Shown one piece after another: positions 1 through 49,496 of a DNA stretch of 64,000 nucleotides. The stretch spans positions 11,710-75,709 of the forward strand of contig JBLIMJ010000003.1 in the NCBI GenBank assembly GCA_047638595.1, written 5' to 3'. The translations under genes and the position numbers were made by a program. The notes beneath the pieces were generated by a model that had not been told where the DNA came from, did not search any database, and saw only the letters and a list, made by a program, of their open reading frames with translations. The first letter of the stretch is position 1. Each line of letters opens with the position of its first letter. The DNA is from Acidimicrobiales bacterium. GTDB taxonomy: Bacteria > Patescibacteriota > Minisyncoccia > Phycocordibacterales > UBA918.

Positions 1-909
1 GGTGGAACTGCGACACTTGTAGGAGACCCTCCCAACATCATGATTGGGTCTGCAGCAGGGTTTTCATTTAACGACTTCTTGATACACTCCCTTCCTGTTG
101 TACTCGTGACCTGGGCCTTGACGCTTATTTTCTTCCGATTCCTTTTCCGAAAAGATCTGAAAGCAAAACCTCAGAACATTGACCAGCTTATGGCAATGAA
201 TGAAAACGAAGCCATCACTGACCCTAAGACACTAAGGAAGCTCCTGATTATCTTCGGTTTAGTTGTTGTTTTATTCTTCCTACACTCCTCACTCCACATG
301 GCGCCTGCGATGGTAGCACTGATTGGTGCATCTTTAGCACTCATCTGGATTGCTCCCCTTCATGACCCACAAAAAACTATTGAGAAGTGTGAGCTATCAG
401 TTCTTCTTTTCTTTGGTTCATTATTTGTAATTGTTGGAGGTCTAGAATTTTCAGGAGTACTTGAACGTGCAGCTGGCTTCATCACTAGTGGTGCCGACAG
501 TAACATTCTTATGACTGCATTGATCATTCTTTGGACGAGTGCAATTCTTTCAGCAATTGTAGACAACATCCCTCTTACTGTTGCCATGATTCCTATTATT
601 GCTTTCTTAGGAACACAGGGTATTCCTGTTGAAATTCTTTGGTGGGCACTTGCGTTTGGAGTTGGGTTTGGTGGAAATGGTTCACCGATTGGTTCTACTG
701 CGGGAGTGATTGTTGTTACAAAGTCTGAGAAGACAGACAACCCAATCTCATTCATTGACTGGATGAAGCAGGGTGTCCCCACAATGCTTCTTGGTTTAGT
801 TGTTGCGTCAATTGCACTAGTTCTCTTTACAGAGTTTTTCATGTCTGACGAAAACATGGGTAACACAGTAGAAGCTGCTGAAACAGCACACCCTGTGCAA
901 GCACGCTAA
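1..909 (+). CDS. ArsB/NhaD/CitMHS-superfamily anion permease, C-terminal part (5' end truncated by window)
   Basis: Frame is open from nt 1 ('GGTATLVGDPPNIMIG', the conserved GDPPN permease motif). Many TM helices. Stop at 907-909. Confidence 0.7.
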   Translation, partial: GGTATLVGDPPNIMIGSAAGFSFNDFLIHSLPVVLVTWALTLIFFRFLFRKDLKAKPQNIDQLMAMNENEAITDPKTLRKLLIIFGLVVVLFFLHSSLHMAPAMVALIGASLALIWIAPLHDPQKTIEKCELSVLLFFGSLFVIVGGLEFSGVLERAAGFITSGADSNILMTALIILWTSAILSAIVDNIPLTVAMIPIIAFLGTQGIPVEILWWALAFGVGFGGNGSPIGSTAGVIVVTKSEKTDNPISFIDWMKQGVPTMLLGLVVASIALVLFTEFFMSDENMGNTVEAAETAHPVQAR

Positions 910-10556: not shown

Positions 10557-13500
10557 TTAAACGTTGTCTTCTGACTGCGCTGGTAACTCTCGCTTCAGGT
10601 CAACATCAAGGGCAAGTCCTCGGAGTTGATTTACCAGAACGTTGAATGCTGCTGGCGTGTACGGGTGACCAATTGATTCTCCTCGAACAATCGAGTCAAA
10701 TGCTGCACTTCGTCCTACGATATCGTCTGACTTAATAGTGAGCATTTCACGAAGTGTGTACGCAGCTCCGTACCCAAGAAGTGCCCATACTTCCATTTCT
10801 CCAAATCGCTGTCCACCAATCTGAGCCTTACCTCCTAATGGCTGTTGGGTAATCAGTGAGTATGGACCTATTGAACGCATATGAATCTTGTCTTCCACCA
10901 TGTGATGAAGTTTCAAGATATACATATAACCAAGTGCTGTTCTTTGTTCAAATTTTTCACCAGTACGTCCATCTCGTAATTGTAGTTTTCCGTCTCTTGG
11001 GATACCAGCTTCTTCTAATTCATCTTTGATTTCATCTTCCGTTGCAGATGCAAACGGAGGTACAATAGCCTGATATCCAAGTGAGTGAGCAGCCATACCG
11101 AGGTGTAGCTCAAGGATCTGACCAAGGTTCATACGTGATGGCACACCAAGTGGTGTCAAAAGAATATCAACTGGACGTCCATCTTCTGTATAAGGCATAT
11201 CTTCTTCTGGAAGAATTCTTGAGATAACACCCTTGTTACCATGACGTCCTGCAAGCTTGTCACCTACAGATATATTTCGTACCTGTGCAACAGTGACAAG
11301 AATCTTCTTGATAACACCACTTTCTAGATTGTCTCCATTTTCACGAGAGAAAATCTTTACGCCAATTACTCGTCCTCTCTTTCCAGCCTGAAGTCGTAGT
11401 GAAGTATCTTTTACATCTTTAGCCTTTTCACCAAAGATAGATCGGAGTAATCGTTCTTCAGGAGTTAGTTGTGCTTCACCCTTTGGTGTTACCTTACCAA
11501 CAAGAATATCTCCAGGACGTACCTCTGCACCTACACGGATAATTCCGTTTTCGTCGAGGTTCCGAAGTTTCATTTCTGACACATTTGGGATATCTGGAGT
11601 TGTTACTTCAGGTCCAAGCTTTGTGTCTCGTACAGACACATCGAGTTCATCCAGGTGAATAGAAGCAAACTTACTTTTCTTCACAAGGCGTTCTGAAATA
11701 ATAATCGCATCCTCATAGTTCGCACCAGACCATGACATAAATGCTACCAGAGCATTTTGCCCTACCGCCATTTGACCATGATCAGTTGAGGTAGTGTCTG
11801 CAAGCAAGTCGCCTCGCAATAATTTATCTCCAACAGTTACCGCAGGTCGATGATAAAATGCTGAGAAATCGTTGGTTCGCTGGATAGTGGTCAATTCGTA
11901 TTCATCTTTCTTTCCGTCTTTTTTCTGAACTACGATGTGTGTTGCATCACATTCAATAACTTCACCAGCTTCACGGGCTACAAGAACACGTCCTGTATCT
12001 CGTGCAGCCAGTCCTTCAATACCAGTTCCTACAATCGGCGCCTCTGGGATAACACAAGGAGTCGCCTGCTTTTGCATGTTTGAACCCATCAATGTTCGGT
12101 TGGCGTCATCATGATTCAAAAATGGAATCATTGAGGTAGCCACAGAGAATGCCTGGTTGGTTGCAATATCCATGTAGTCAACATCTTTCCTTGCTACCAA
12201 TCGAGGCTCACCCTTACGACGTACTTCTACGTGATCAGGTGTAATTCTGCCCTTGCTATCTACTTCTACTGCAGCATGCGCAATAGTGAATGCTTCTTCC
12301 TCATGTGCGTTAAGATATATAATTTCGCCGGTTAAAATACCTTTCTCTACTTTTACGTATGGTGTTTCTATAATACCGAATCGGTTTACTCGAGCATACA
12401 TTGCAAGACGAAGAATCAAACCAATGTTCGGCCCTTCCGGAGTATGGATTGGGCAGAGTCGTCCGTAGTGTGATGTATGAACGTCACGCACTTCAAAACC
12501 AGCACGTTCTCGTGTCAATCCACCAGGACCAAGCGCTGAAAGTGTACGTAGCCCTTCAAGCTCTCCAAGCACGTTTTGCTGTGGCATGAACTGTGAAAGC
12601 TGGTTTGTGGTAAAGAATTCTTTAATCGCAGCCTGTAGTGGTCGTGGATTAAGAATCTGCATTGGGAGTGAGGTTTCTGCTTCAATAGTCGACATCCGGT
12701 CTTGAATGTTTCGCTTCATACGAGTCATACCAACTCGTACTCGCTGGATAGCCATTTCACCGAAGTATCGTACACGTCGAAATCCGAGGTGGTCGATATC
12801 GTCTGGCATAGCTCCAGGTGTATGGTTGAGTACCATAATGTTCCCAAGAATCAATCGGAAATCCTCAAGTGAGGTTGTTCGTTCATCGGTTGCCTTTTTA
12901 TCAACAGGCCGATCAAAACGACTATTGAAATGATGCCGTCCGATTTCTGAAAGATCGTACCGTTCAGGAGAAAAGATGGAGTTTACAAACTCCTTTGCGT
13001 TATCTACGGTCGCAAGATCACCATCTCGCAGACGTTTATAGACTTCAACATATGAATCATCAGTCGTTTTTGCTGGATCTTTTTCAAGTGTTGCTTTGAT
13101 GTACTCCTCACCTCGCTCTACATCGCTAAAGAGCTTAATCATATCTTCATCTTTCTCAACGCCTAATACGCGGAGAAGTGAAGTGATAGGCACTTTCTTC
13201 TTTCGATCAATTTTAATGTAAATGATTCCATCCGCCTCAGACTCAATTTCAATCCATGCACCACGTGCAGGAATTATTTTTGCTCCAAAGTATGTTTTAC
13301 CCTTAATGTCTTGGGACGTGAAGAAGATACCGTAACTTCGTGCAAGTTGTGGCACCACTACTCGCTCAACACCATTAATGATGAATGTTCCATGATCAGT
13401 CATCACAGGAATATCCGCCAAGAAAATTTCCTGATCCTTTGCGGAATCAAAAGTTTTGTTCTTTAAGACTACTGTTGCACGCAATGGTGCATCATACGTA

Positions 13501-31906: not shown

Positions 31907-32203
31907 ATGAGACTAGAAGTAACGCACGACTTCAGTTCAAGAGTAATGAGCGTAGCACGGTACCTTGTCTTGGACCCTGATCGACACGCAGGAGAGAGAC
32001 TGACTCAATCTCTTGACCAACTTGAGAAGCTTCGTTCGCATATGGAAGCTATGGCAGATAAGGTACCCGGTGAGAACTTTATAAAAACAAGCATGGACCA
32101 ACAAGGATTACAATTCTGTGTGAAATTCGGTACTTCAAAAGGTGGCAAACGATTTGATTTCAGAAGTTTTTGCGGCTGGGTTGAATTATGTGACATGGAA
32201 TGA
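31907..32203 (+). CDS. Hypothetical protein (98 aa)
   Basis: AAAGGAG SD 8 nt upstream. Followed by a terminator at 32219-32258. Confidence 0.4.
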   Translation: MRLEVTHDFSSRVMSVARYLVLDPDRHAGERLTQSLDQLEKLRSHMEAMADKVPGENFIKTSMDQQGLQFCVKFGTSKGGKRFDFRSFCGWVELCDME

Positions 32204-32218
32204 ACAAACTGTAAATTA

Positions 32219-32258
32219 CCGCGCCCTATCTTTTAAGGGTGCGGTTTTTATCTGTTTG
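32219..32258 (+). terminator. Intrinsic terminator (9-bp stem with one G-U pair, plus TTTTTATCTGTTTG)
   Basis: CCGCGCCCT-ATCTTTTA-AGGGTGCGG then T-tract. Confidence 0.6.
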
Positions 32259-32285
32259 ACAACCCGCCCATCAAAACGCTACTAT
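32256..32285 (+). promoter_or_regulatory. Candidate sigma-70 promoter for the thrS leader
   Basis: TTGACA - 18 nt - TACTAT. Confidence 0.45.
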
Positions 32286-32289
32286 AGGA

Positions 32290-32555
32290 ACCAATCAGAG
32301 ATTGCAATGTCCACCAAACACTGTCGTAATTACGAACGTAATTACGAACGTAATTACGTCCAATCTGATACAAAAAGAGTTGTATAGAATACTATACAGA
32401 ATGCCCGGTGGAACCGCGGATGAGGTCTAGCCTCAATCGTCCGAGCGAACACATGAACTTTCGTGTAGTCGCTTGGGCGATTTCTTATACATTCACCATT
32501 AATTACATTTCCAGTAAGGGGTACTACCCCCATACTGGAGTTAAACACTTATTTT
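32290..32555 (+). promoter_or_regulatory. T-box-like leader upstream of thrS (T-box sequence plus terminator/antiterminator)
   Basis: GGTGGAACCGCGG (32407-32419) matches the T-box consensus GGGUGGNACCGCG. A 13-bp-stem terminator (32436-32481) plus TTCTTAT follows. 'CCACCAAAC' is a possible ACC (Thr) specifier. Stem I was not resolved by eye. Confidence 0.5.
32325..32358 (+). repeat. Tandem repeat (CGTAATTACGAA) x2.8 inside the thrS leader
   Basis: Each unit contains the palindrome CGTAATTACG. Confidence 0.8.
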
Positions 32556-34316
32556 ATGAGTTCGGACAATCAACAACTAGCTAATAAACGACATACATTG
32601 GCCCACCTGCTTGCGGCTGCGGTTTTACAGGAATATCCACATGCAATCCTTACCCTTGGGCCGGCTATTGATAATGGTTTCTATTACGATATCGACTTCT
32701 CGGCAGGTAACGCTCCTGGTGATGATAACTTGAAGAGTATCCAGAAGACGATGAAGAAGACATTAAATACTTGGAAAGAATTTTCACACAAGGAAGTTTC
32801 TGCAGATGAAGCTCGCGCAGCTTTTGAAGGTAACCAATTCAAGCTTGAGCTTATAGATGAGATTGAAGCAAAAGGTGAAGCAATTACCCTCTATACTATT
32901 GGCGAAGGTAAGGCTGAATTCACTGACCTCTGTCGTGGTGGGCATACTGAAAATCCCTCAGAGGAAATTGCCGCTGACGCGTTTAAGCTCGACAAAATTG
33001 CTGGTGCGTACTGGCGTGGTGATGAAAAGAATCCAATGCTTACACGTATCTACGGACTAGCGTTCGACACCAAGGAAGAACTCATGGCGTACGAACAGCA
33101 ACGTACTGAGGCTATAAAGCGTGACCACAGGAAGTATGCAAAGGAACATGACTTGTTGGTTTTCTCTGACCTTGTTGGTTCTGGGATGCCTATGTGGACA
33201 CCAAAAGGAAATATCCTTCGCAATGCAGTTATAGACTATTCACGTGAGCTGAACAAAAAACTTGAATTTGGCGAAGTACATACTCCAAATCTCAACAAAG
33301 CTGAACTGTTCAAATGTTCAGGACACTACGATCAATATAAAGACGACATGATGCAAGTGAAGTCACAGTACGTAAAAGACGAGATGTTTCTAAAACCAAT
33401 GAACTGTCCACAGCATACCCAGATTTATGACAGTCAACCACGTAGCTATAAAGATTTACCGATTCGCTATGCTGATTTTGCTAACCTCTACAGAGATGAA
33501 CGTCCAGGGGAGCTTTCTGGCTTAACTCGACTACGCGCCTTTGCACAGGACGATGGGCATGTTTTCTGTCGAGAAGCGCAAGTAAAGGAAGAGCTCGTTA
33601 AGATATTAGATGTTGTAAAAGAAGCTCTAGAACGATACGGTGTTAGCAACTGGATTCGACTATCACTTCACGACCCTGAAAATCGAGAAAAGTACCTTGG
33701 TGATGATGACTTATGGGAGCGTTCTGAACAAGAACTCCGAGATGTGATATCTGAAGCTGGTATTGATTACAAAGAAGTTGCAGGTGAAGCTGCTTTTTAT
33801 GGACCAAAGCTAGATATTATTGCAGTCGACGCACTGGGTCGAGAATGGCAGATTTCAACCATTCAGGTTGACCGCGTCCAACCTGAACGATTCGATTTGA
33901 CCTGTATCAATGAACTGGGAGAGAAAGAGCGTGTAGTAATGATTCATCGCGCTTTAATTGGATCACCAGACCGATTCATCGGAATCTTGATTGAACATTA
34001 TGCAGGAAACTTCCCTCTCTGGCTGTCACCTGTGCAGCTTGCCATCATTCCCGTAGCTGACGTCCATAATGAATACGCAAAAAGTGTCTATGACACATTG
34101 AAACAAGCAGGGTTCCGTGTGGAACTAGATGATGAAAATGAGTCCATGGGAAAGAAAATCCGTAATGCAAAAAAGAATAAACTTCCCTACTTCATTGTTA
34201 TTGGAGACCAAGAAGTTGAAGGAAAAACGGTCACCCTTGAGTCTCGTGATACTGAAAGTAATGAGACGCTTTCGATAGAAAACTTACTTTCAAAACTTAC
34301 CGAAGAATCTAAATAA
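32556..34316 (+). CDS. thrS: Threonyl-tRNA synthetase (lacks N-terminal TGS domain)
   Basis: Editing-domain HxxxH ('HTLAHLLAA'), class II catalytic core and anticodon-binding domain. 586 aa. Confidence 0.92.
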   Translation: MSSDNQQLANKRHTLAHLLAAAVLQEYPHAILTLGPAIDNGFYYDIDFSAGNAPGDDNLKSIQKTMKKTLNTWKEFSHKEVSADEARAAFEGNQFKLELIDEIEAKGEAITLYTIGEGKAEFTDLCRGGHTENPSEEIAADAFKLDKIAGAYWRGDEKNPMLTRIYGLAFDTKEELMAYEQQRTEAIKRDHRKYAKEHDLLVFSDLVGSGMPMWTPKGNILRNAVIDYSRELNKKLEFGEVHTPNLNKAELFKCSGHYDQYKDDMMQVKSQYVKDEMFLKPMNCPQHTQIYDSQPRSYKDLPIRYADFANLYRDERPGELSGLTRLRAFAQDDGHVFCREAQVKEELVKILDVVKEALERYGVSNWIRLSLHDPENREKYLGDDDLWERSEQELRDVISEAGIDYKEVAGEAAFYGPKLDIIAVDALGREWQISTIQVDRVQPERFDLTCINELGEKERVVMIHRALIGSPDRFIGILIEHYAGNFPLWLSPVQLAIIPVADVHNEYAKSVYDTLKQAGFRVELDDENESMGKKIRNAKKNKLPYFIVIGDQEVEGKTVTLESRDTESNETLSIENLLSKLTEESK

Positions 34317-34826: not shown

Positions 34827-37010
34827 TTATGAAACAGCTTTCACTGCTTTCATAATTGCCATTTTGACAGCTGATGCTTCATCAGTATATGTACCGTCAA
34901 GTGCACCAGTGAGTGCCATAATAGCTTCTTCAAGTTGTTCACTTGAGATAGATAATACCGCAGTAGTAAGCATGTTTGATACCAGCACCTCTTCTCCTTT
35001 ACGAGATCGGTACACTGCATCAAGGTCAGCTGCCGCGTCAGCAAGTGCAATCATTGGGCGATGAGCAATCAATTGATATGCTGCAACGATATTCCCTGTA
35101 GTAATTGCTTCTGCAAGAGAACCTGCTGTTACTACTTCCGTTTGGGTTTCAACTTCTTGTTCTGCAGCATCATCAGTGACAAGTGATTCCATGCGTGCAA
35201 GATTTAATACCATCCAACCACCTTCACTTGGGAATAGTGTCTTTGCTTGCGCTAATACTGCATCAAGTTTTTCATTTCGTGTTTCTCCAGCTTCCGTTGC
35301 ATTCATGAAGAATCGCATCGCATCACTTGAAAGAAGTGCCTTTTGTGCATGTGCACGATTTTCTAATTCTGACATTTCAATTGACTCATCAGTTTCATCA
35401 CCAATTGTTTCTTCGGCTGCTGCATATTCTACTACAGGAGTTGTAATGGGAAAATCTACAGGTACTGCTTCTGCTACTGCAGAATGTACGTAGTTTTCTG
35501 CTTCTGACTGCATAGAATCATCAGATGCTTCTATACCCATATCTGTAAATGTTGTATGTTCGTGCGCACCTGCTAATGATATTCCTCCAATTGAATCTCG
35601 ACGAACAACTAATACATATGATACAAACAATCCCCAAATAGTTAGTATTGTGTAGAAAATGAGGGTCAGTGCAGGGCCAGCTTCAAAACCAGTATATGGT
35701 ACTTGTGTAAGTGAGATACCTGCAACAAGTGGATCATGTGTACGTGCTTCAAGGACCGTCACCTGATTTTCAACGTCAACTTCTACTTCACATTCTTTTT
35801 CCCTAGTACCTCGCTTTGAAAGTAAAGTGTATTTTGTATCTTTGGTAGGCTTTAATTTCATTGAACCGTCAAATTCAGAACTTTTTTTAGTATCAACTAA
35901 TACATTTCCATGGTTATCAGTAAGCTTTACTTCTTTTGCTCGTGAAGTGTCCCATGTAAGAGTAATAGTTTCTCCTTTTTTGATTTTACTATCAGAGATA
36001 TCAAGATCACAGCGTGGCGTTGAGGATCCTCCACCACCTCCTCCTCCGGTTGCTACATCGATAGATAGAGGGCATTCAATTGAGTCACTTCCTGAATATG
36101 CAGTGAGTATGTAAGTAGCATCAGCTCCAACACGCACTGTCTCAGTATCAGAAAGATTAGTAGAAGCAACTCCATTAATTGAAATAGAATCAATGTCTGT
36201 AGTAGTCCATGTTAGGGTAACGTCTCCACCACCTGTTGGAAGTGCATAATCGCTAGAAGCGAACGTTACGTTGTTAGCACAGGTGAATATTTCTGGATTT
36301 GCAACGGTAATAGTGAGTGGACAAGTCACATCAGCAAAGCCTACTTTGGATGCGGTAAGAATATAAGTAATTGTGTTCGCTACATTCACACTTGTAGAAC
36401 CATCTTCTGCAACCGTACCAACACTGTTGTTGATTGAGACACTGTCAGCATCTGTTGTTGTCCAAGTCAGAGTTGCTGCCCCTCCTCCAGCCGGCAAGGA
36501 GGTAGGTGAAGCTGTAAATGAATCACAACTAGGGGCAGAAGATATTTCCACAACATCAATTGGAGCTGAACAAGTTACAGAACCAACAGTGTTGGTTACT
36601 GTTAAGGTGTAGGTAATGTCAGCAGTTACAGTAACTGCTGCTGAACCATTAACAGCCACAGATCCAACTCCATTGTCGATTGATGTTGTATCTGCATTTG
36701 TAGTGGTCCACGATAGAGTTGACGCCCCACCACCAACAGGTAGTGACGACGGTGATGCTGTAAATGCGCTACAGGTAGGTAACGGGTCGGGTGTGGGATC
36801 AGGAGTTGGATCAGGAGTTGGATCAGGGTCTCCACAACCACCACAGCCACCATCATCTCCACCTCCACCGTCACCATCACCACCGCCAAATGCGGAAACA
36901 ACAGACATGTCGAGTGCAAAGTTATTCGAAAATAGCACTGGCGTTGCAAATGCAAGGACAGCAAAAACAGTAGCAATAAGCAGTCCTGTAGTAATATTTT
37001 TTGTAAACAT
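34827..37010 (-). CDS. Large surface protein: signal peptide, G/D-rich and (DPTP)n linker, four tandem Ig-like repeats, TM helix, C-terminal cytoplasmic domain
   Basis: Start taken at ATG 37010 ('MFTKNITTGLLIATVFAVLAFATPVLFS'). Four ~90-aa repeats each begin with Cys ('C.AFTASPSSLP.GGGA.TL.WTTT.AD..SI'). 'VPYTGFEAGPALTLIFYTILTIWGLFVSYVLVVRRD' looks like a sorting signal, but ~270 aa follow it. Confidence 0.75.
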   Translation of the reverse strand: MFTKNITTGLLIATVFAVLAFATPVLFSNNFALDMSVVSAFGGGDGDGGGGDDGGCGGCGDPDPTPDPTPDPTPDPLPTCSAFTASPSSLPVGGGASTLSWTTTNADTTSIDNGVGSVAVNGSAAVTVTADITYTLTVTNTVGSVTCSAPIDVVEISSAPSCDSFTASPTSLPAGGGAATLTWTTTDADSVSINNSVGTVAEDGSTSVNVANTITYILTASKVGFADVTCPLTITVANPEIFTCANNVTFASSDYALPTGGGDVTLTWTTTDIDSISINGVASTNLSDTETVRVGADATYILTAYSGSDSIECPLSIDVATGGGGGGGSSTPRCDLDISDSKIKKGETITLTWDTSRAKEVKLTDNHGNVLVDTKKSSEFDGSMKLKPTKDTKYTLLSKRGTREKECEVEVDVENQVTVLEARTHDPLVAGISLTQVPYTGFEAGPALTLIFYTILTIWGLFVSYVLVVRRDSIGGISLAGAHEHTTFTDMGIEASDDSMQSEAENYVHSAVAEAVPVDFPITTPVVEYAAAEETIGDETDESIEMSELENRAHAQKALLSSDAMRFFMNATEAGETRNEKLDAVLAQAKTLFPSEGGWMVLNLARMESLVTDDAAEQEVETQTEVVTAGSLAEAITTGNIVAAYQLIAHRPMIALADAAADLDAVYRSRKGEEVLVSNMLTTAVLSISSEQLEEAIMALTGALDGTYTDEASAVKMAIMKAVKAVS

Positions 37011-37110
37011 AAATAAGTATTTAATATAATTTAACCTCTGTATACTCTTACCTACACCAGTACGCAAGAATATTAGAAGTGGGAAGGCAAACTTGTTGCC
37101 TTCCCATGTT

Positions 37111-37659
37111 TCAGAGAGAGATTGGACATGCATCATAGCGACTATCGCAACGGCAACGGTACGGGGTACCTTGCACAACGATAAGTAGCCAATTATTGCA
37201 GCCATAAGGTCGTTCGATTTGGTAGAATGCACGATCAGCCTGGAAGTTAAACTGCCAGATGTCAGTACGTTTCTGATCTGCACGCCAATTCGAGGAAAAT
37301 GGTCGAACGTTAGTTGCAACCCAAGGTTTTGAATTGGGATTTGCTCCACCTGAAACCATCGCGTTATAGATCGTGCTTGAACGAACTTCACCAGTTGTGT
37401 GAGGAGTATTGTACACCCCAGGCGACCGCTGGATCGTACGGCGGATCTTACGGCGATATTTTTGTGGAATTCCCATCAGCTCAAGAGCCACGGAAATATC
37501 CTGGTTACCAAATGGATCAACGCCGATACGATGCCAATGAAAGGCATTTCCGACAATCTTCCCATTTGTATGAACTGCAGATGCTGCAAAACTCGGACGG
37601 GCAGCCAACATGACCAACCCTCCAAAAATCGCTGTCCTGCGAGTGATTGTGCAAGTCAT
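37111..37659 (-). CDS. Secreted protein with twin-arginine-like signal peptide (183 aa)
   Basis: Start at ATG 37659 with AGGAAAGGAAAG upstream. 'MTCTITRRTAIFGGLVMLAARPSFAASA'. Cys-rich C-terminus. Confidence 0.6.
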   Translation of the reverse strand: MTCTITRRTAIFGGLVMLAARPSFAASAVHTNGKIVGNAFHWHRIGVDPFGNQDISVALELMGIPQKYRRKIRRTIQRSPGVYNTPHTTGEVRSSTIYNAMVSGGANPNSKPWVATNVRPFSSNWRADQKRTDIWQFNFQADRAFYQIERPYGCNNWLLIVVQGTPYRCRCDSRYDACPISL

Positions 37660-43569: not shown

Positions 43570-45504
43570 TTATCGAGTTTCCCAATCTTGTTCTGTAGCC
43601 GCTTTGTACACTTTATCCATTTCAGTATTCACTTCATCATCAGTGAGTGTTCGATCCATTGCTTGAAATACCAAACGAAATGCAAGTGACGTCCTTCCCT
43701 CTTTACTAAATTCATCAACATGTGTCGTACGTATTCGCAAGTCCCCTGCTGATTCATTGAGCACCTTTTCCACATCTTCCTTCGAAGTTCCTTCTGGAAC
43801 CCACATTGCAATATCACGAGTCATAGCTGGATACAGAGAAAAAGGTTTATACGCAATCTCTTCTGCAACAGAAACAGTTTCGTACGCAGCTGGCGCAGGA
43901 AGAGATTCAAATACTTCAGTGAAGTTACATTCAAACACCCCCTTCTCAATACTACGGTTAACCGTAGTATTGAGCTTTGATTCGATTACTCCCAACACTT
44001 CTTCAAGTACTGCCTCATCTTTTGGGTTGTAGCCACTTGCTTTGGTTCGTACGCCAAGTGCCAGAGATACATGTTCTGCAATGCCACCTTCTGTTTTATG
44101 AAAAACTGTTCCAATTTCAAATACACGAATATCTTCGATGCCGAGCAAGTCGGTAAATCCTGCATTTTTATCTAGAACGTCCACAATCCCCTTTGCCAGG
44201 TTGGAGCGCATGTATTCTTTATCACTTGCAAGCGCATTTTGTAGTCGTATTTTATCTTTCTTCCTAAAGGATGAGATGATGACCTCAGAGAAACCTAACC
44301 CGACCAAAACATCACGAACTTGTTCGCTGTAGGAGTGTCGTGCATTAAGCTCCGTAAGGGCCACCGTCTCTGGCACAACTGACTCAATCTTATCTAGGCC
44401 GTATACTCGTCCAATTTCTTCAGTAAAGTCCTCCTCGATTGATAGGTCAGTTCGCTCCCATGGACCAACACATTCAAAGTGGTCCCCCGCTTTTTCTACA
44501 GTAGCTCCCATACGCGTAAGGATTGATTCCATCTCATCCTCTGACAGAGACAGTCCCAGTAACGCATTTACCTTTTCAGGTCGTACGCTCACTTTTGTAT
44601 TTTCTTTTTTCTCTAGATAGACATCAAGCACTCCCTGTCCTGCTCCTCCAGCAATATCGGCAATCAGTGCAGTAACTTCTTGTTGTGCGCAGAGTGGCAA
44701 CTCTCGTGAACATTCATTTTCAAAACGTTTTGAAGCGTCAATGACAATACCAAGTCGCCGTGCTGTCTTACGTGTAAGCGTAGCGTCAAAGTGTGCACAC
44801 TCGATAATTATCTTCGTAGTATTTTCATCCACTCCTGCAAATCGTCCGCCCTTTACTCCTGCTAGACCAATTGGAGTGTTTGACGATTTATCAATAATCA
44901 AAAGTTCGGTACCTTTCAGAACTACATCACGGTCTTCATCCTTCCCGCCTTCAGCAATCAAACTCACTACCTCTCCTTCCTTTGCATACCGTACAGCAAA
45001 TTGCCACTTTCCATCTACTTGTGGGAATTTATCAGCATCATACGCATGGATTGGTTGCCCAATGGCATACATGACGTAGTTGGTTGCATCAACAATATTA
45101 TTGATTGGTCGCTGACCGAGGGCCTGCAGTCGGTCCTGTAGCCACCGTGGTGAATCTTTCACCTCAATGCCCGTCATCAATGACGCAGTAAATCGTGGAC
45201 ACGCTTTTTCATCTTCTATATCAACCGTAATAACGTCAGTCTCTTGTGGAGTAATTTCTTTCTGAAGTGGATCGTTTACTAAAGGTACTCCTGTAATAGT
45301 TGCGATTTCACGCGCAATGCCTCGATGGCACAAGCAGTCTGACGAACGGTTTGGCAACACATCCACATCAATCACTTCGTGCCCTGCGACTGTTTCAATT
45401 CCTTCGATCTCAAAAGAATGGAATGTCAAAAGCTTCTCAATCTCTTGCGCAGAAGGAATGGAGTCACCAATATAATCTTTAAGCCAATTGTGTACTACTA
45501 ACAT
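43570..45504 (-). CDS. pheT: Phenylalanyl-tRNA synthetase beta subunit (short form)
   Basis: B3/B4, B5 and class-II-like core blocks. Immediately downstream of pheS. Confidence 0.9.
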   Translation of the reverse strand: MLVVHNWLKDYIGDSIPSAQEIEKLLTFHSFEIEGIETVAGHEVIDVDVLPNRSSDCLCHRGIAREIATITGVPLVNDPLQKEITPQETDVITVDIEDEKACPRFTASLMTGIEVKDSPRWLQDRLQALGQRPINNIVDATNYVMYAIGQPIHAYDADKFPQVDGKWQFAVRYAKEGEVVSLIAEGGKDEDRDVVLKGTELLIIDKSSNTPIGLAGVKGGRFAGVDENTTKIIIECAHFDATLTRKTARRLGIVIDASKRFENECSRELPLCAQQEVTALIADIAGGAGQGVLDVYLEKKENTKVSVRPEKVNALLGLSLSEDEMESILTRMGATVEKAGDHFECVGPWERTDLSIEEDFTEEIGRVYGLDKIESVVPETVALTELNARHSYSEQVRDVLVGLGFSEVIISSFRKKDKIRLQNALASDKEYMRSNLAKGIVDVLDKNAGFTDLLGIEDIRVFEIGTVFHKTEGGIAEHVSLALGVRTKASGYNPKDEAVLEEVLGVIESKLNTTVNRSIEKGVFECNFTEVFESLPAPAAYETVSVAEEIAYKPFSLYPAMTRDIAMWVPEGTSKEDVEKVLNESAGDLRIRTTHVDEFSKEGRTSLAFRLVFQAMDRTLTDDEVNTEMDKVYKAATEQDWETR

Positions 45505-49420: not shown

Positions 49421-49496
49421 TGGAGCCACCTGTCAGATTCGAACTGACGACCTACTCATTACAAGTGAGTTGCTCTACCAACTGAGCTAAGGTGGC
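49421..49496 (-). tRNA. tRNA-Thr (anticodon UGU), CCA encoded
   Basis: GCCACCU-UA-GCUC-AGUUGGUA-GAGC-A-ACUCA-CUUGUAA-UGAGU-AGGUC-GUCAG-UUCGAAU-CUGAC-AGGUGGC-U-CCA. Full cloverleaf, 76 nt. Confidence 0.9.

Follow-up and report, generated by a model that had tools for sequence, protein, structure and literature searches.

The window analyzed here, by which we mean the whole stretch of 64,000 nucleotides at positions 11,710 to 75,709 of contig JBLIMJ010000003.1 (GenBank assembly GCA_047638595.1) from a bacterium of the Patescibacteriota, also known as the Candidate Phyla Radiation (CPR), raises the question of how the gene for threonyl-tRNA synthetase (thrS, 32556..34316, 586 aa) is controlled. 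A model's reading of the sequence alone (hereafter, the sequence-only reading) proposed that the region 32219-32555 is a T-box-type leader with internal 12-nt tandem repeats. Comparison of this leader with its relatives suggests that it is most probably a threonine-specific, transcription-attenuating T-box riboswitch of reduced architecture. Its 3' half (Stem III, GGUGGAACCGCG and an antiterminator overlapping a terminator) is a canonical T-box discriminator, and the place of Stem I is taken by a multi-helix junction that consists of the helix P1, the joint GAUUG, the hairpin P2, a slot for variable arms (P3/P4) and a CUAA-type joint. Thus, the terminator-based T-box of the proposal stands, in the 3' half, but the leader is not a standard T-box. 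We infer from these features that the leader would bind tRNA, sense its aminoacylation state and make no contact with the tRNA elbow. All leader elements and thrS itself are on the + strand.

The sequence GGTGGAACCGCGG at 32407-32419, where the sequence-only reading had placed it, matches the T-box antiterminator sequence. The exact 12-mer GGTGGNACCGCG occurs only once within the window; when up to two mismatches are allowed, the window contains 7 matches compared to 5.2 expected, so that only the exact match is informative. The longer segment CCCGGUGGAACCGCG (32405-32419), which includes the antiterminator 5' side and the bulge, fits the conserved T-box pattern AGGGUGGNACCGCG. When the segment 32403..32446 is folded in isolation, the minimum-energy structure is the antiterminator with a 7-nt bulge, at -14.7 kcal/mol, and the alignment with the Rfam T-box model RF00230 delineates the same element. 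Helix A1 pairs GCCCGG (32403-08) with CCGAGC (32441-46), the bulge UGGAACC spans 32409-15, helix A2 pairs GCG (32416-18) with CGU (32438-40), and an apical hairpin occupies 32422-34. The intrinsic terminator (32435..32489; -28.8 kcal/mol) is formed by the arms ATCGTCCGAGCGA (32436-32448) and TCGCTTGGGCGAT (32469-32481), which pair over 13 bp, including two G-U pairs, and enclose an inner 6-bp hairpin; TTTCTTAT comes next. Both the 13-bp stem and the gap of about 70 nt to the synthetase gene that had been claimed are borne out, the terminator ending 74 nt before the ATG at 32556. The 5' arm of the terminator reuses the 3' strand of the antiterminator, so that the two structures are mutually exclusive, and the terminator is the stronger one. 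A simple terminator scan makes no call for the leader terminator at 32436-32481. Among the relatives described below, folds read by eye reveal a hairpin followed by a T-run, starting at a CGYCC motif, in essentially all 71 evaluable leaders, with a weak terminator in L089; an automatic terminator filter passed 41 of the 71, the others being mis-scored as the fold extended into a second hairpin. Upstream of the antiterminator, the RF00230 alignment and the predicted fold identify Stem III (32380..32399), an 8-bp helix of TTGTATAG and CTATACAG closed by an AATA loop, which is present in most relatives and absent in L022, L024, L105, L127, L129, L133, L159, L160, L170 and L192. This stem is preceded by an A-rich linker, ACAAAAAGAG (32370..32379), which ends in an AAAGNG-type box, aligned with aaAGuG of RF00230 and corresponding to AAG.G in the family. 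In helix A1, the C.A mismatch at 32405/32444 (CCCGG vs CCGAG) is common to the subgroup that includes the window and L083, L091, L099 and L034, most members having U-A; in the terminator, the A forms a normal pair, and the mismatch would weaken specifically the antiterminator.

To delineate the family, 80 ThrS loci from genomes were compared, and a metagenome collection was scanned by pattern. About a dozen CPR genome loci contain TGGAACCGCG 100-130 nt upstream of thrS, and these share a distinct 5' pattern, namely, a variable stretch, GATTG, a 6-bp hairpin with a YUACCAA loop, one or two further hairpins, CTAA, and the complement of the variable stretch. The metagenome pattern, GATTG-N6-YY-NNN-AR-N{63,93}-GGTGGNACCGCG, leaves the loop triplet free and fixes GATTG, the Y-Y of the loop and the A-R after the codon. 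The scan returned at least 120 stretches, 67 of which, among the matches listed, carry ACC. Of the listed stretches, 65 have the P2 geometry (5-6 of 6 pairs at fixed offsets) together with ACC, and all of these are family members. Stretches with other triplets among the matches listed form 0-4 of the six stem pairs, the exceptions being L140 (CGC) and L182 (GTA), with 5 of 6 pairs each, which are at chance level and are not recovered by the family model. Two stretches with ACC and no hairpin, L102 and L184, are coding sequence and were discarded; the two non-ACC matches inspected, L128 (CGG) and L134 (ATC), are ordinary T-boxes with a long Stem I. The same architecture with other codons was not found among the matches listed, the pattern requiring GATTG.

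The resulting family comprises 74 leaders, including that of the window, from CPR genomes and metagenomes, after removal of two false positives. In 67 of the 74, the gene directly downstream encodes ThrS; of the remaining seven, six contigs are too short, and the 956 nt downstream of the leader in L164 show no ThrS match. The downstream ThrS proteins are only 40-74% identical to that of the window. Pairs were counted in a gapless alignment of fixed-length core segments (alignment A2, 73 sequences), where 90.0% of the cells of the proposed helices are paired, compared to 66.0% in shuffles, and the covariation score is 0.709, against 0.235 for shuffled sequences and no more than 0.145 when the partner strands are slid. 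The anchors for the P1 3' strand and the antiterminator 3' strand were partly chosen by pairing, which biases the counts for P1 and helix A1 slightly; P2 was extracted by fixed offsets and is free of this bias. RNAalifold, applied unguided to a full MAFFT alignment (alignment A1), recovers P2 and helix A1. The 12-nt T-box sequence is invariant across the family, and helix A1 covaries, with 94.3% of pairs formed. Given that the same arrangement is found upstream of thrS at 73 other loci with strong covariation, the feature is real. The sequence-only reading held that the T-box match would be coincidental if neither a significant covariance-model hit nor a Stem I with a specifier was found; applied literally, this rule would have discarded a real feature.

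The 5' domain is closed by helix P1, in which ATCAGA (32294..32299) pairs with TCTGAT (32364..32369). The inner four P1 pairs covary over the 73 sequences (e.g., AU in 34, CG in 16, UA in 12 and UG in 9). The 5' junction strand J1/2, GAUUG (32300..32304), is conserved: in 11 of 13 genome loci found without requiring the motif it is GATTG, with GATCG in L034 and AGTTG in L055. Its UUG might prolong P1 if it paired with the AA and the Y of the 3' joint, with GA then forming a bulge, and the family contains no sequence variation for this extension. The 3' junction strand J4/1 (32360..32363) is CCAA in the window and CUAA in most relatives; an automatic parse yields CTAA in 67 of the 74 members and CCAA in 3, the rest being mostly parse errors. 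By eye, neither K-turn or T-loop readings of GAUUG/CUAA nor pairing of these joints with tRNA-Thr produced a convincing match. Between P1 and the variable arms is P2 (32305..32323), a 6-bp hairpin with the stem CAATGT/ACACTG and the 7-nt loop CCACCAA (32311-32317), which is supported by covariation and RNAalifold; in the core alignment, 97.9% of its pairs are formed, and all six covary with changes on both sides. When the window segment 32293-32372 is folded alone, P1, P2 and a hairpin of the repeat are obtained.

The P2 loop appears to contain the specifier. The triplet ACC (32313-32315) matches the amino acid of the thrS product and is followed by a purine, A (to 32316); all 74 members have ACC in this loop. 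The sequence-only reading had guessed a possible ACC specifier within CCACCAAAC, and this is indeed the sole invariant Thr codon of the leader family. The alternative triplet ACA at 32370-32372, considered as a specifier for tRNA-Thr(UGU), was rejected, as it lies in the non-conserved linker and is not kept in relatives. The P2 loop resembles an anticodon loop in size, in the pyrimidine and U that precede the triplet, and in the purines that follow it. The loop Y-U/C-ACC-A-A would contact the tRNA loop to loop, in the way that two complementary anticodons contact each other. In the proposed mechanism, uncharged tRNA-Thr would pair its GGU anticodon with the ACC loop and its free U73-C-C-A end with the UGGA bulge. 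These contacts would stabilize the weak antiterminator (-14.7 kcal/mol) against the terminator (-28.8 kcal/mol), and RNA polymerase would then read into thrS; charged tRNA could not stabilize the antiterminator, and transcription would stop at 32481-32489. The sole tRNA encoded in the window, tRNA-Thr(UGU) (49421..49496, - strand), has the discriminator base U73, an encoded CCA and the 3' end ...GGUGGC-U-CCA, so that U73-CCA is complementary to the UGGA bulge, a check that the sequence-only reading had proposed; this match rests on the UGU isoacceptor. The tRNA-Thr(UGU) of L192 likewise has U73 and an encoded CCA. The ACC codon would be read best by the GGU isoacceptor; an ARAGORN search of the collected loci identified two tRNA-Thr genes only, both UGU. 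The UGGA form of the bulge (N = A) is found in 73 of the 74 members. The exception is L174 (~369-514, - strand), with the sole UGGG bulge (GGTGGGACCGCG), which would pair with C73 or form a G.U wobble with U73.

The size of the P2 hairpin, which is that of an anticodon arm, together with the missing canonical tRNA-docking elements, could also be taken to mean that the leader no longer senses tRNA and is constitutive or controlled by a protein, e.g., through autoregulation by ThrRS as in E. coli thrS, the T-box being a relic. In E. coli, the mRNA of ThrRS contains mimics of the anticodon arm, to which the enzyme binds. However, the P2 loop displays the sense codon ACC rather than a threonine anticodon (GGU, UGU or CGU) and hence does not mimic tRNA-Thr. 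Furthermore, the invariance of the 12-nt T-box, including UGGA, across ThrS proteins that are so diverged implies continued selection on the contact with the tRNA 3' end, and ACC is invariant even as the stem around it changes freely. We therefore consider loss of tRNA sensing unlikely. The least probable of the alternatives is that the specifier loop docks on the T-box of the same molecule, CCACC (32311-15) with GGUGG (32407-11), either for self-regulation or as an anti-antiterminator that is released by tRNA. This pairing comprises 5 bp in the window and, for the consensus loop CUACC, 5 bp including one G.U, and loop positions 1-2 are always pyrimidines able to pair with G-G. However, the ACC:GGU complementarity follows automatically from the two invariant motifs, two pyrimidines are also expected in an anticodon-like loop, and the 9-nt loops of L044, L054 and L055 lose the extended pairing. 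As a separate observation, the codon and the conserved A that follows it form ACCA, which resembles the NCCA end of tRNA.

Against a reduced tRNA-sensing T-box weigh several observations, the first of which concern the Rfam models. A permissive RF00230 search over 32150-32620 (471 nt) yields 23.9 bits (E = 0.0022) for the window leader, far below the gathering threshold of 93; the AAAGNG box, Stem III, GGUGGAACCGCG and the antiterminator 3' strand CGUCC align well, and Stem I is cut from 93 model positions to 9 nt. The CPR relatives score about 24-45 bits with Stem I deleted, and, at gathering thresholds, 20 member loci show no Rfam match. There is no long Stem I and no elbow platform: the K-turn, the internal specifier loop with the S-turn, the AG bulge and the distal loop are all missing; of these, the sequence-only reading had suggested checking for the specifier loop and the distal AG bulge/loop. 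The Stem II S-turn motif was not found at the level of sequence motifs. In the window genome, P2 contains one A.C mismatch, helix A1 contains the C.A mismatch, and the U-tract of the terminator is interrupted (TTTCTTAT). The window encodes no tRNA-Thr(GGU), and tRNA-Thr(UGU) would mismatch ACC at the wobble position. The conservation of GATTG, Y-Y and A-R rests on about 13 unconstrained genome loci. Finally, the distribution is patchy: the 80 genome loci include 42 CPR-labelled thrS loci, of which 14 match the family covariance model (R1), and the leader is missing from L001-L003, the three closest genome relatives.

Some of these observations bear as well on the possibility that the leader is an ordinary T-box of the Rfam type, with a diverged yet complete Stem I and with the repeats inserted in Stem I or II. 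RF00230 is the best cis-regulatory match of the leader, and the repeats are aligned at the position of Stem II. However, Stem I is deleted in the alignment both here and in every CPR relative tested; the F-box CCGUUA is detectable in 1 of the 74 members, the AG-bulge motif AGVGA is found in 16 of the 74 at no fixed position, and there is no S-turn motif (with sequence motifs alone tested). Moreover, the codon occupies a terminal loop that precedes the variable arms, and not the 3' side of an internal loop, and the covarying P1 encloses the entire 5' domain, unlike in canonical T-boxes. An ordinary T-box is accordingly very unlikely. By comparison, in the thrS leader of a Chloroflexi locus (L053), which scores 79 bits, the canonical Stem I and Stem II are both complete, so that the CPR form seems to be derived by reduction from an ordinary thrS T-box. 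At gathering thresholds, Rfam finds only the tRNA and no T-box in the whole window; the other permissive Rfam matches (SNORA69, L10 leader and others) are below threshold and were treated as chance.

The P3/P4 slot of the reduced T-box (32325..32358) is where the window leader is peculiar. Tandem Repeats Finder identifies here, as claimed, 2.8 copies of CGTAATTACGAA with period 12 and 100% matches. Each repeat unit includes the 10-nt palindrome CGTAATTACG, which is present in three perfect copies spaced by 12 nt, and the copies fold, in any of several nearly equivalent registers, into a 9-10 bp hairpin and a mini-hairpin. P2 and the 3' junction strand flank the repeat exactly; in the relatives, this slot spans 16-45 nt and accommodates a single hairpin at 34 loci and two hairpins at 38, their sequences not being conserved. 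The repeats were regarded by the sequence-only reading as foreign to standard T-boxes. They are absent from the relatives, including the closest ones, L081, L083, L091 and L099, which have ordinary hairpins at this place; nevertheless, they are no separate oddity and simply fill the variable slot. The repeat is most readily explained by a slippage duplication, specific to this lineage, in a tolerant arm; each unit being palindromic, three copies can satisfy the architecture of the variable arms. The repeat thus shows how junction arms can be remade by simple slippage duplication with the core undisturbed.

That the repeat is itself functional, either as a DNA operator for a dimeric regulator or as part of a threonine/isoleucine-rich leader peptide (frame 2), is highly improbable. 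The regular spacing of the three palindromes would suit the former; for the latter, two of the three reading frames are open, one of them with three ACG Thr codons. However, the repeat is found in no relative and occupies a slot that otherwise accommodates hairpins of arbitrary sequence. The palindrome CGTAATTACG occurs nowhere else in the window and in only one unrelated place in 200 loci, and a dispersed operator was rejected on these grounds. Attenuation through a peptide with the (V-I-T-N)x3 frame was rejected as well: no credible ribosome-binding site precedes the open reading frame (ORF), which begins with TTG and is not conserved. This mechanically called ORF (32302-32430, 42 aa) reads the repeat as (V-I-T-N)x3, which we judge to be a coincidence, and so is the likeness to the repeat of P3 of L019 (UUACGUAAGCUACGUAA), an ordinary 7-bp hairpin.

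The R1 model finds exactly one match in the window (80.4 bits) and recovers members that were not in its seed, e.g., L055, L047, L026 and L016. Its matches are found in Parcubacteria/Paceibacteria, Nomurabacteria, Falkowbacteria, Buchananbacteria and Minisyncoccia, with weaker ones in Kerfeldbacteria, Saccharimonadia and Moranbacteria; L050, L055 and L016, which also match, have uninformative or doubtful labels. No second match to R1 was detected in the window or in any CPR contig. Another T-box-like sequence, GGTGGAACTGCG at window positions 1-12, lies inside a membrane-protein ORF and is due to chance. Neither Rfam nor the family model identifies a T-box-like leader upstream of pheT, the gene for the phenylalanyl-tRNA synthetase beta chain (43570-45504, - strand), which is consistent with a thrS-specific element. 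The window protein contains the class II aminoacyl-tRNA synthetase core, the HGTP anticodon-binding domain and tRNA_SAD; its closest genome relatives, at 62-63% identity, come from metagenome-assembled genomes of Paceibacterota/Patescibacteria, in agreement with the sequence-only reading, which had suspected a reduced CPR-type genome.

Several relatives deviate from the common arrangement. In L047 (2481-2969, 162 aa) and L026 (2104-2697, 197 aa), an extra ORF lies between the leader and thrS, and the leader would control a two-gene unit. In the Moranbacteria-labelled L074 (~2802-2917), there is a hairpin with an ACC loop and a T-box in the form UGGAACCGUCC, with no P1, GAUUG, P3/P4 or CUAA; this locus looks like an even more reduced form. 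In L093, L104, L114, L131 and L159, the ThrS match, which directly follows the leader, begins only around residue 185-190 of the window protein, and these synthetases appear to lack the N-terminal (tRNA_SAD/editing) region. In L081, L088, L151 and L195, the region from the terminator to thrS contains 100-170 nt of extra, hairpin-rich sequence, compared to 20-75 nt in most members; these may be inserted elements.

The surroundings of the leader in the window are compatible with a separate transcript. A 98-aa ORF (31907-32203) is followed by a terminator-like hairpin with a T-run (32218..32245; a 10-bp stem with 7 G-C pairs, then TTTTATCTGT), which sets the upstream limit of the leader unit; dnaE is also located upstream of the leader and thrS. 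A promoter-like TTGACA-18-TACTAT is found at 32256..32285, with 10 of 12 consensus matches. Both this promoter and the preceding terminator are where the sequence-only reading put them, as consensus matches only. The promoter would place the transcript start at about 32291-32293, right at P1. Between the terminator and the thrS start, a strong hairpin at 32509-32540 (CCAGUAAGGGG...CCCCCAUACUGG) overlaps the only GGAG (32537-32540), 15 nt before the ATG; the respective 84-nt stretch folds at -20.3 kcal/mol (z = -3.3), and a comparable hairpin, of GGGG with CCCC, occupies the equivalent position in L083 and L091. On the other side, thrS is adjoined by an 854-aa ORF (34827-37391, - strand) with no Pfam match and with internal short tandem repeats (36796-36881; units GGATCAGGAGTT and ACCACCACCGCC).

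T-boxes are known chiefly from Firmicutes, Actinobacteria and a small number of further phyla. The leaders compared here would extend tRNA-sensing riboswitches to the reduced genomes of CPR, where few regulatory RNAs are known. It is an evenly balanced proposition that the Patescibacteria possess an undescribed, threonine-only class of transcriptional T-boxes, in which Stem I is replaced by a hairpin resembling an anticodon arm within a three- or four-way junction, with loop-loop decoding and with neither the elbow platform nor Stem II. The chance that such a class has escaped previous description is somewhat better than even: full-text literature searches, which do not cover subscription literature, returned no T-box in association with CPR, Patescibacteria or Parcubacteria. 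The T-box database TBDB is based on two models, RF00230 and a class II model with which Actinobacteria were searched (PMC7778990). The CPR leaders would be detected by neither one, which leaves a gap in standard annotation; the family covariance model does detect them.

With canonical T-boxes (RF00230; e.g., thrS and tyrS of Bacillus, and L053), the CPR leader shares GGUGGNACCGCG in the 7-nt antiterminator bulge, the competing terminator and antiterminator, Stem III with the AAAGNG box, the match between UGGN and the discriminator base, ACC followed by A, and the control of a synthetase gene. It differs in having no long Stem I with the K-turn, S-turn, AG bulge and elbow platform of the distal loop. 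Instead, the codon is displayed by a terminal loop of 7 nt in the 5' part of the domain, and P1 encloses the domain with the GAUUG and CUAA joints. It thus appears to be a natural minimal T-box, in which the discriminator is kept and tRNA would be decoded with only a 19-nt hairpin. The closest parallel in the design of the decoding hairpin, including the short helix, the specifier in a terminal loop and the absence of the double T-loop, is provided by the ileS T-boxes of Actinobacteria (e.g., Mycobacterium ileS) with an ultrashort Stem I, a class in which all members regulate ileS (bioRxiv 10.1101/2023.02.28.530422). However, these T-boxes are translational and sequester the Shine-Dalgarno sequence, in contrast to the CPR leader with its terminator and T-run 74 nt before the start codon; they recognize tRNA-Ile and possess the Stem II S-turn and the IIA/B pseudoknot, whereas the CPR leader is associated with thrS and ACC, and these motifs are absent. 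In addition, the CPR leader has the enclosing P1 junction and comes from a different phylum.

A different part of the architecture is shared with glyQS-type T-boxes, which are transcriptional and in which a single-stranded linker joins the decoding domain to Stem III and the antiterminator, with no Stem II or IIA/B. The CPR leader has the same direct linker and mode of control; the glyQS-type T-boxes, however, keep the long Stem I with the elbow platform that the CPR leader lacks. Transcriptional T-boxes generally need a long Stem I with the elbow-binding double T-loop and the Stem II S-turn, and variants with an intermediate or ultrashort Stem I occur in translational T-boxes (PMC7583486). 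If true, tRNA sensing by the CPR leaders would contradict the view that fast tRNA capture by transcriptional T-boxes depends on a long Stem I. According to reviews, variants with a truncated Stem I compensate with Stem II, but the CPR class appears to have neither. The CPR leader makes the minimal requirement for co-transcriptional tRNA capture directly testable.

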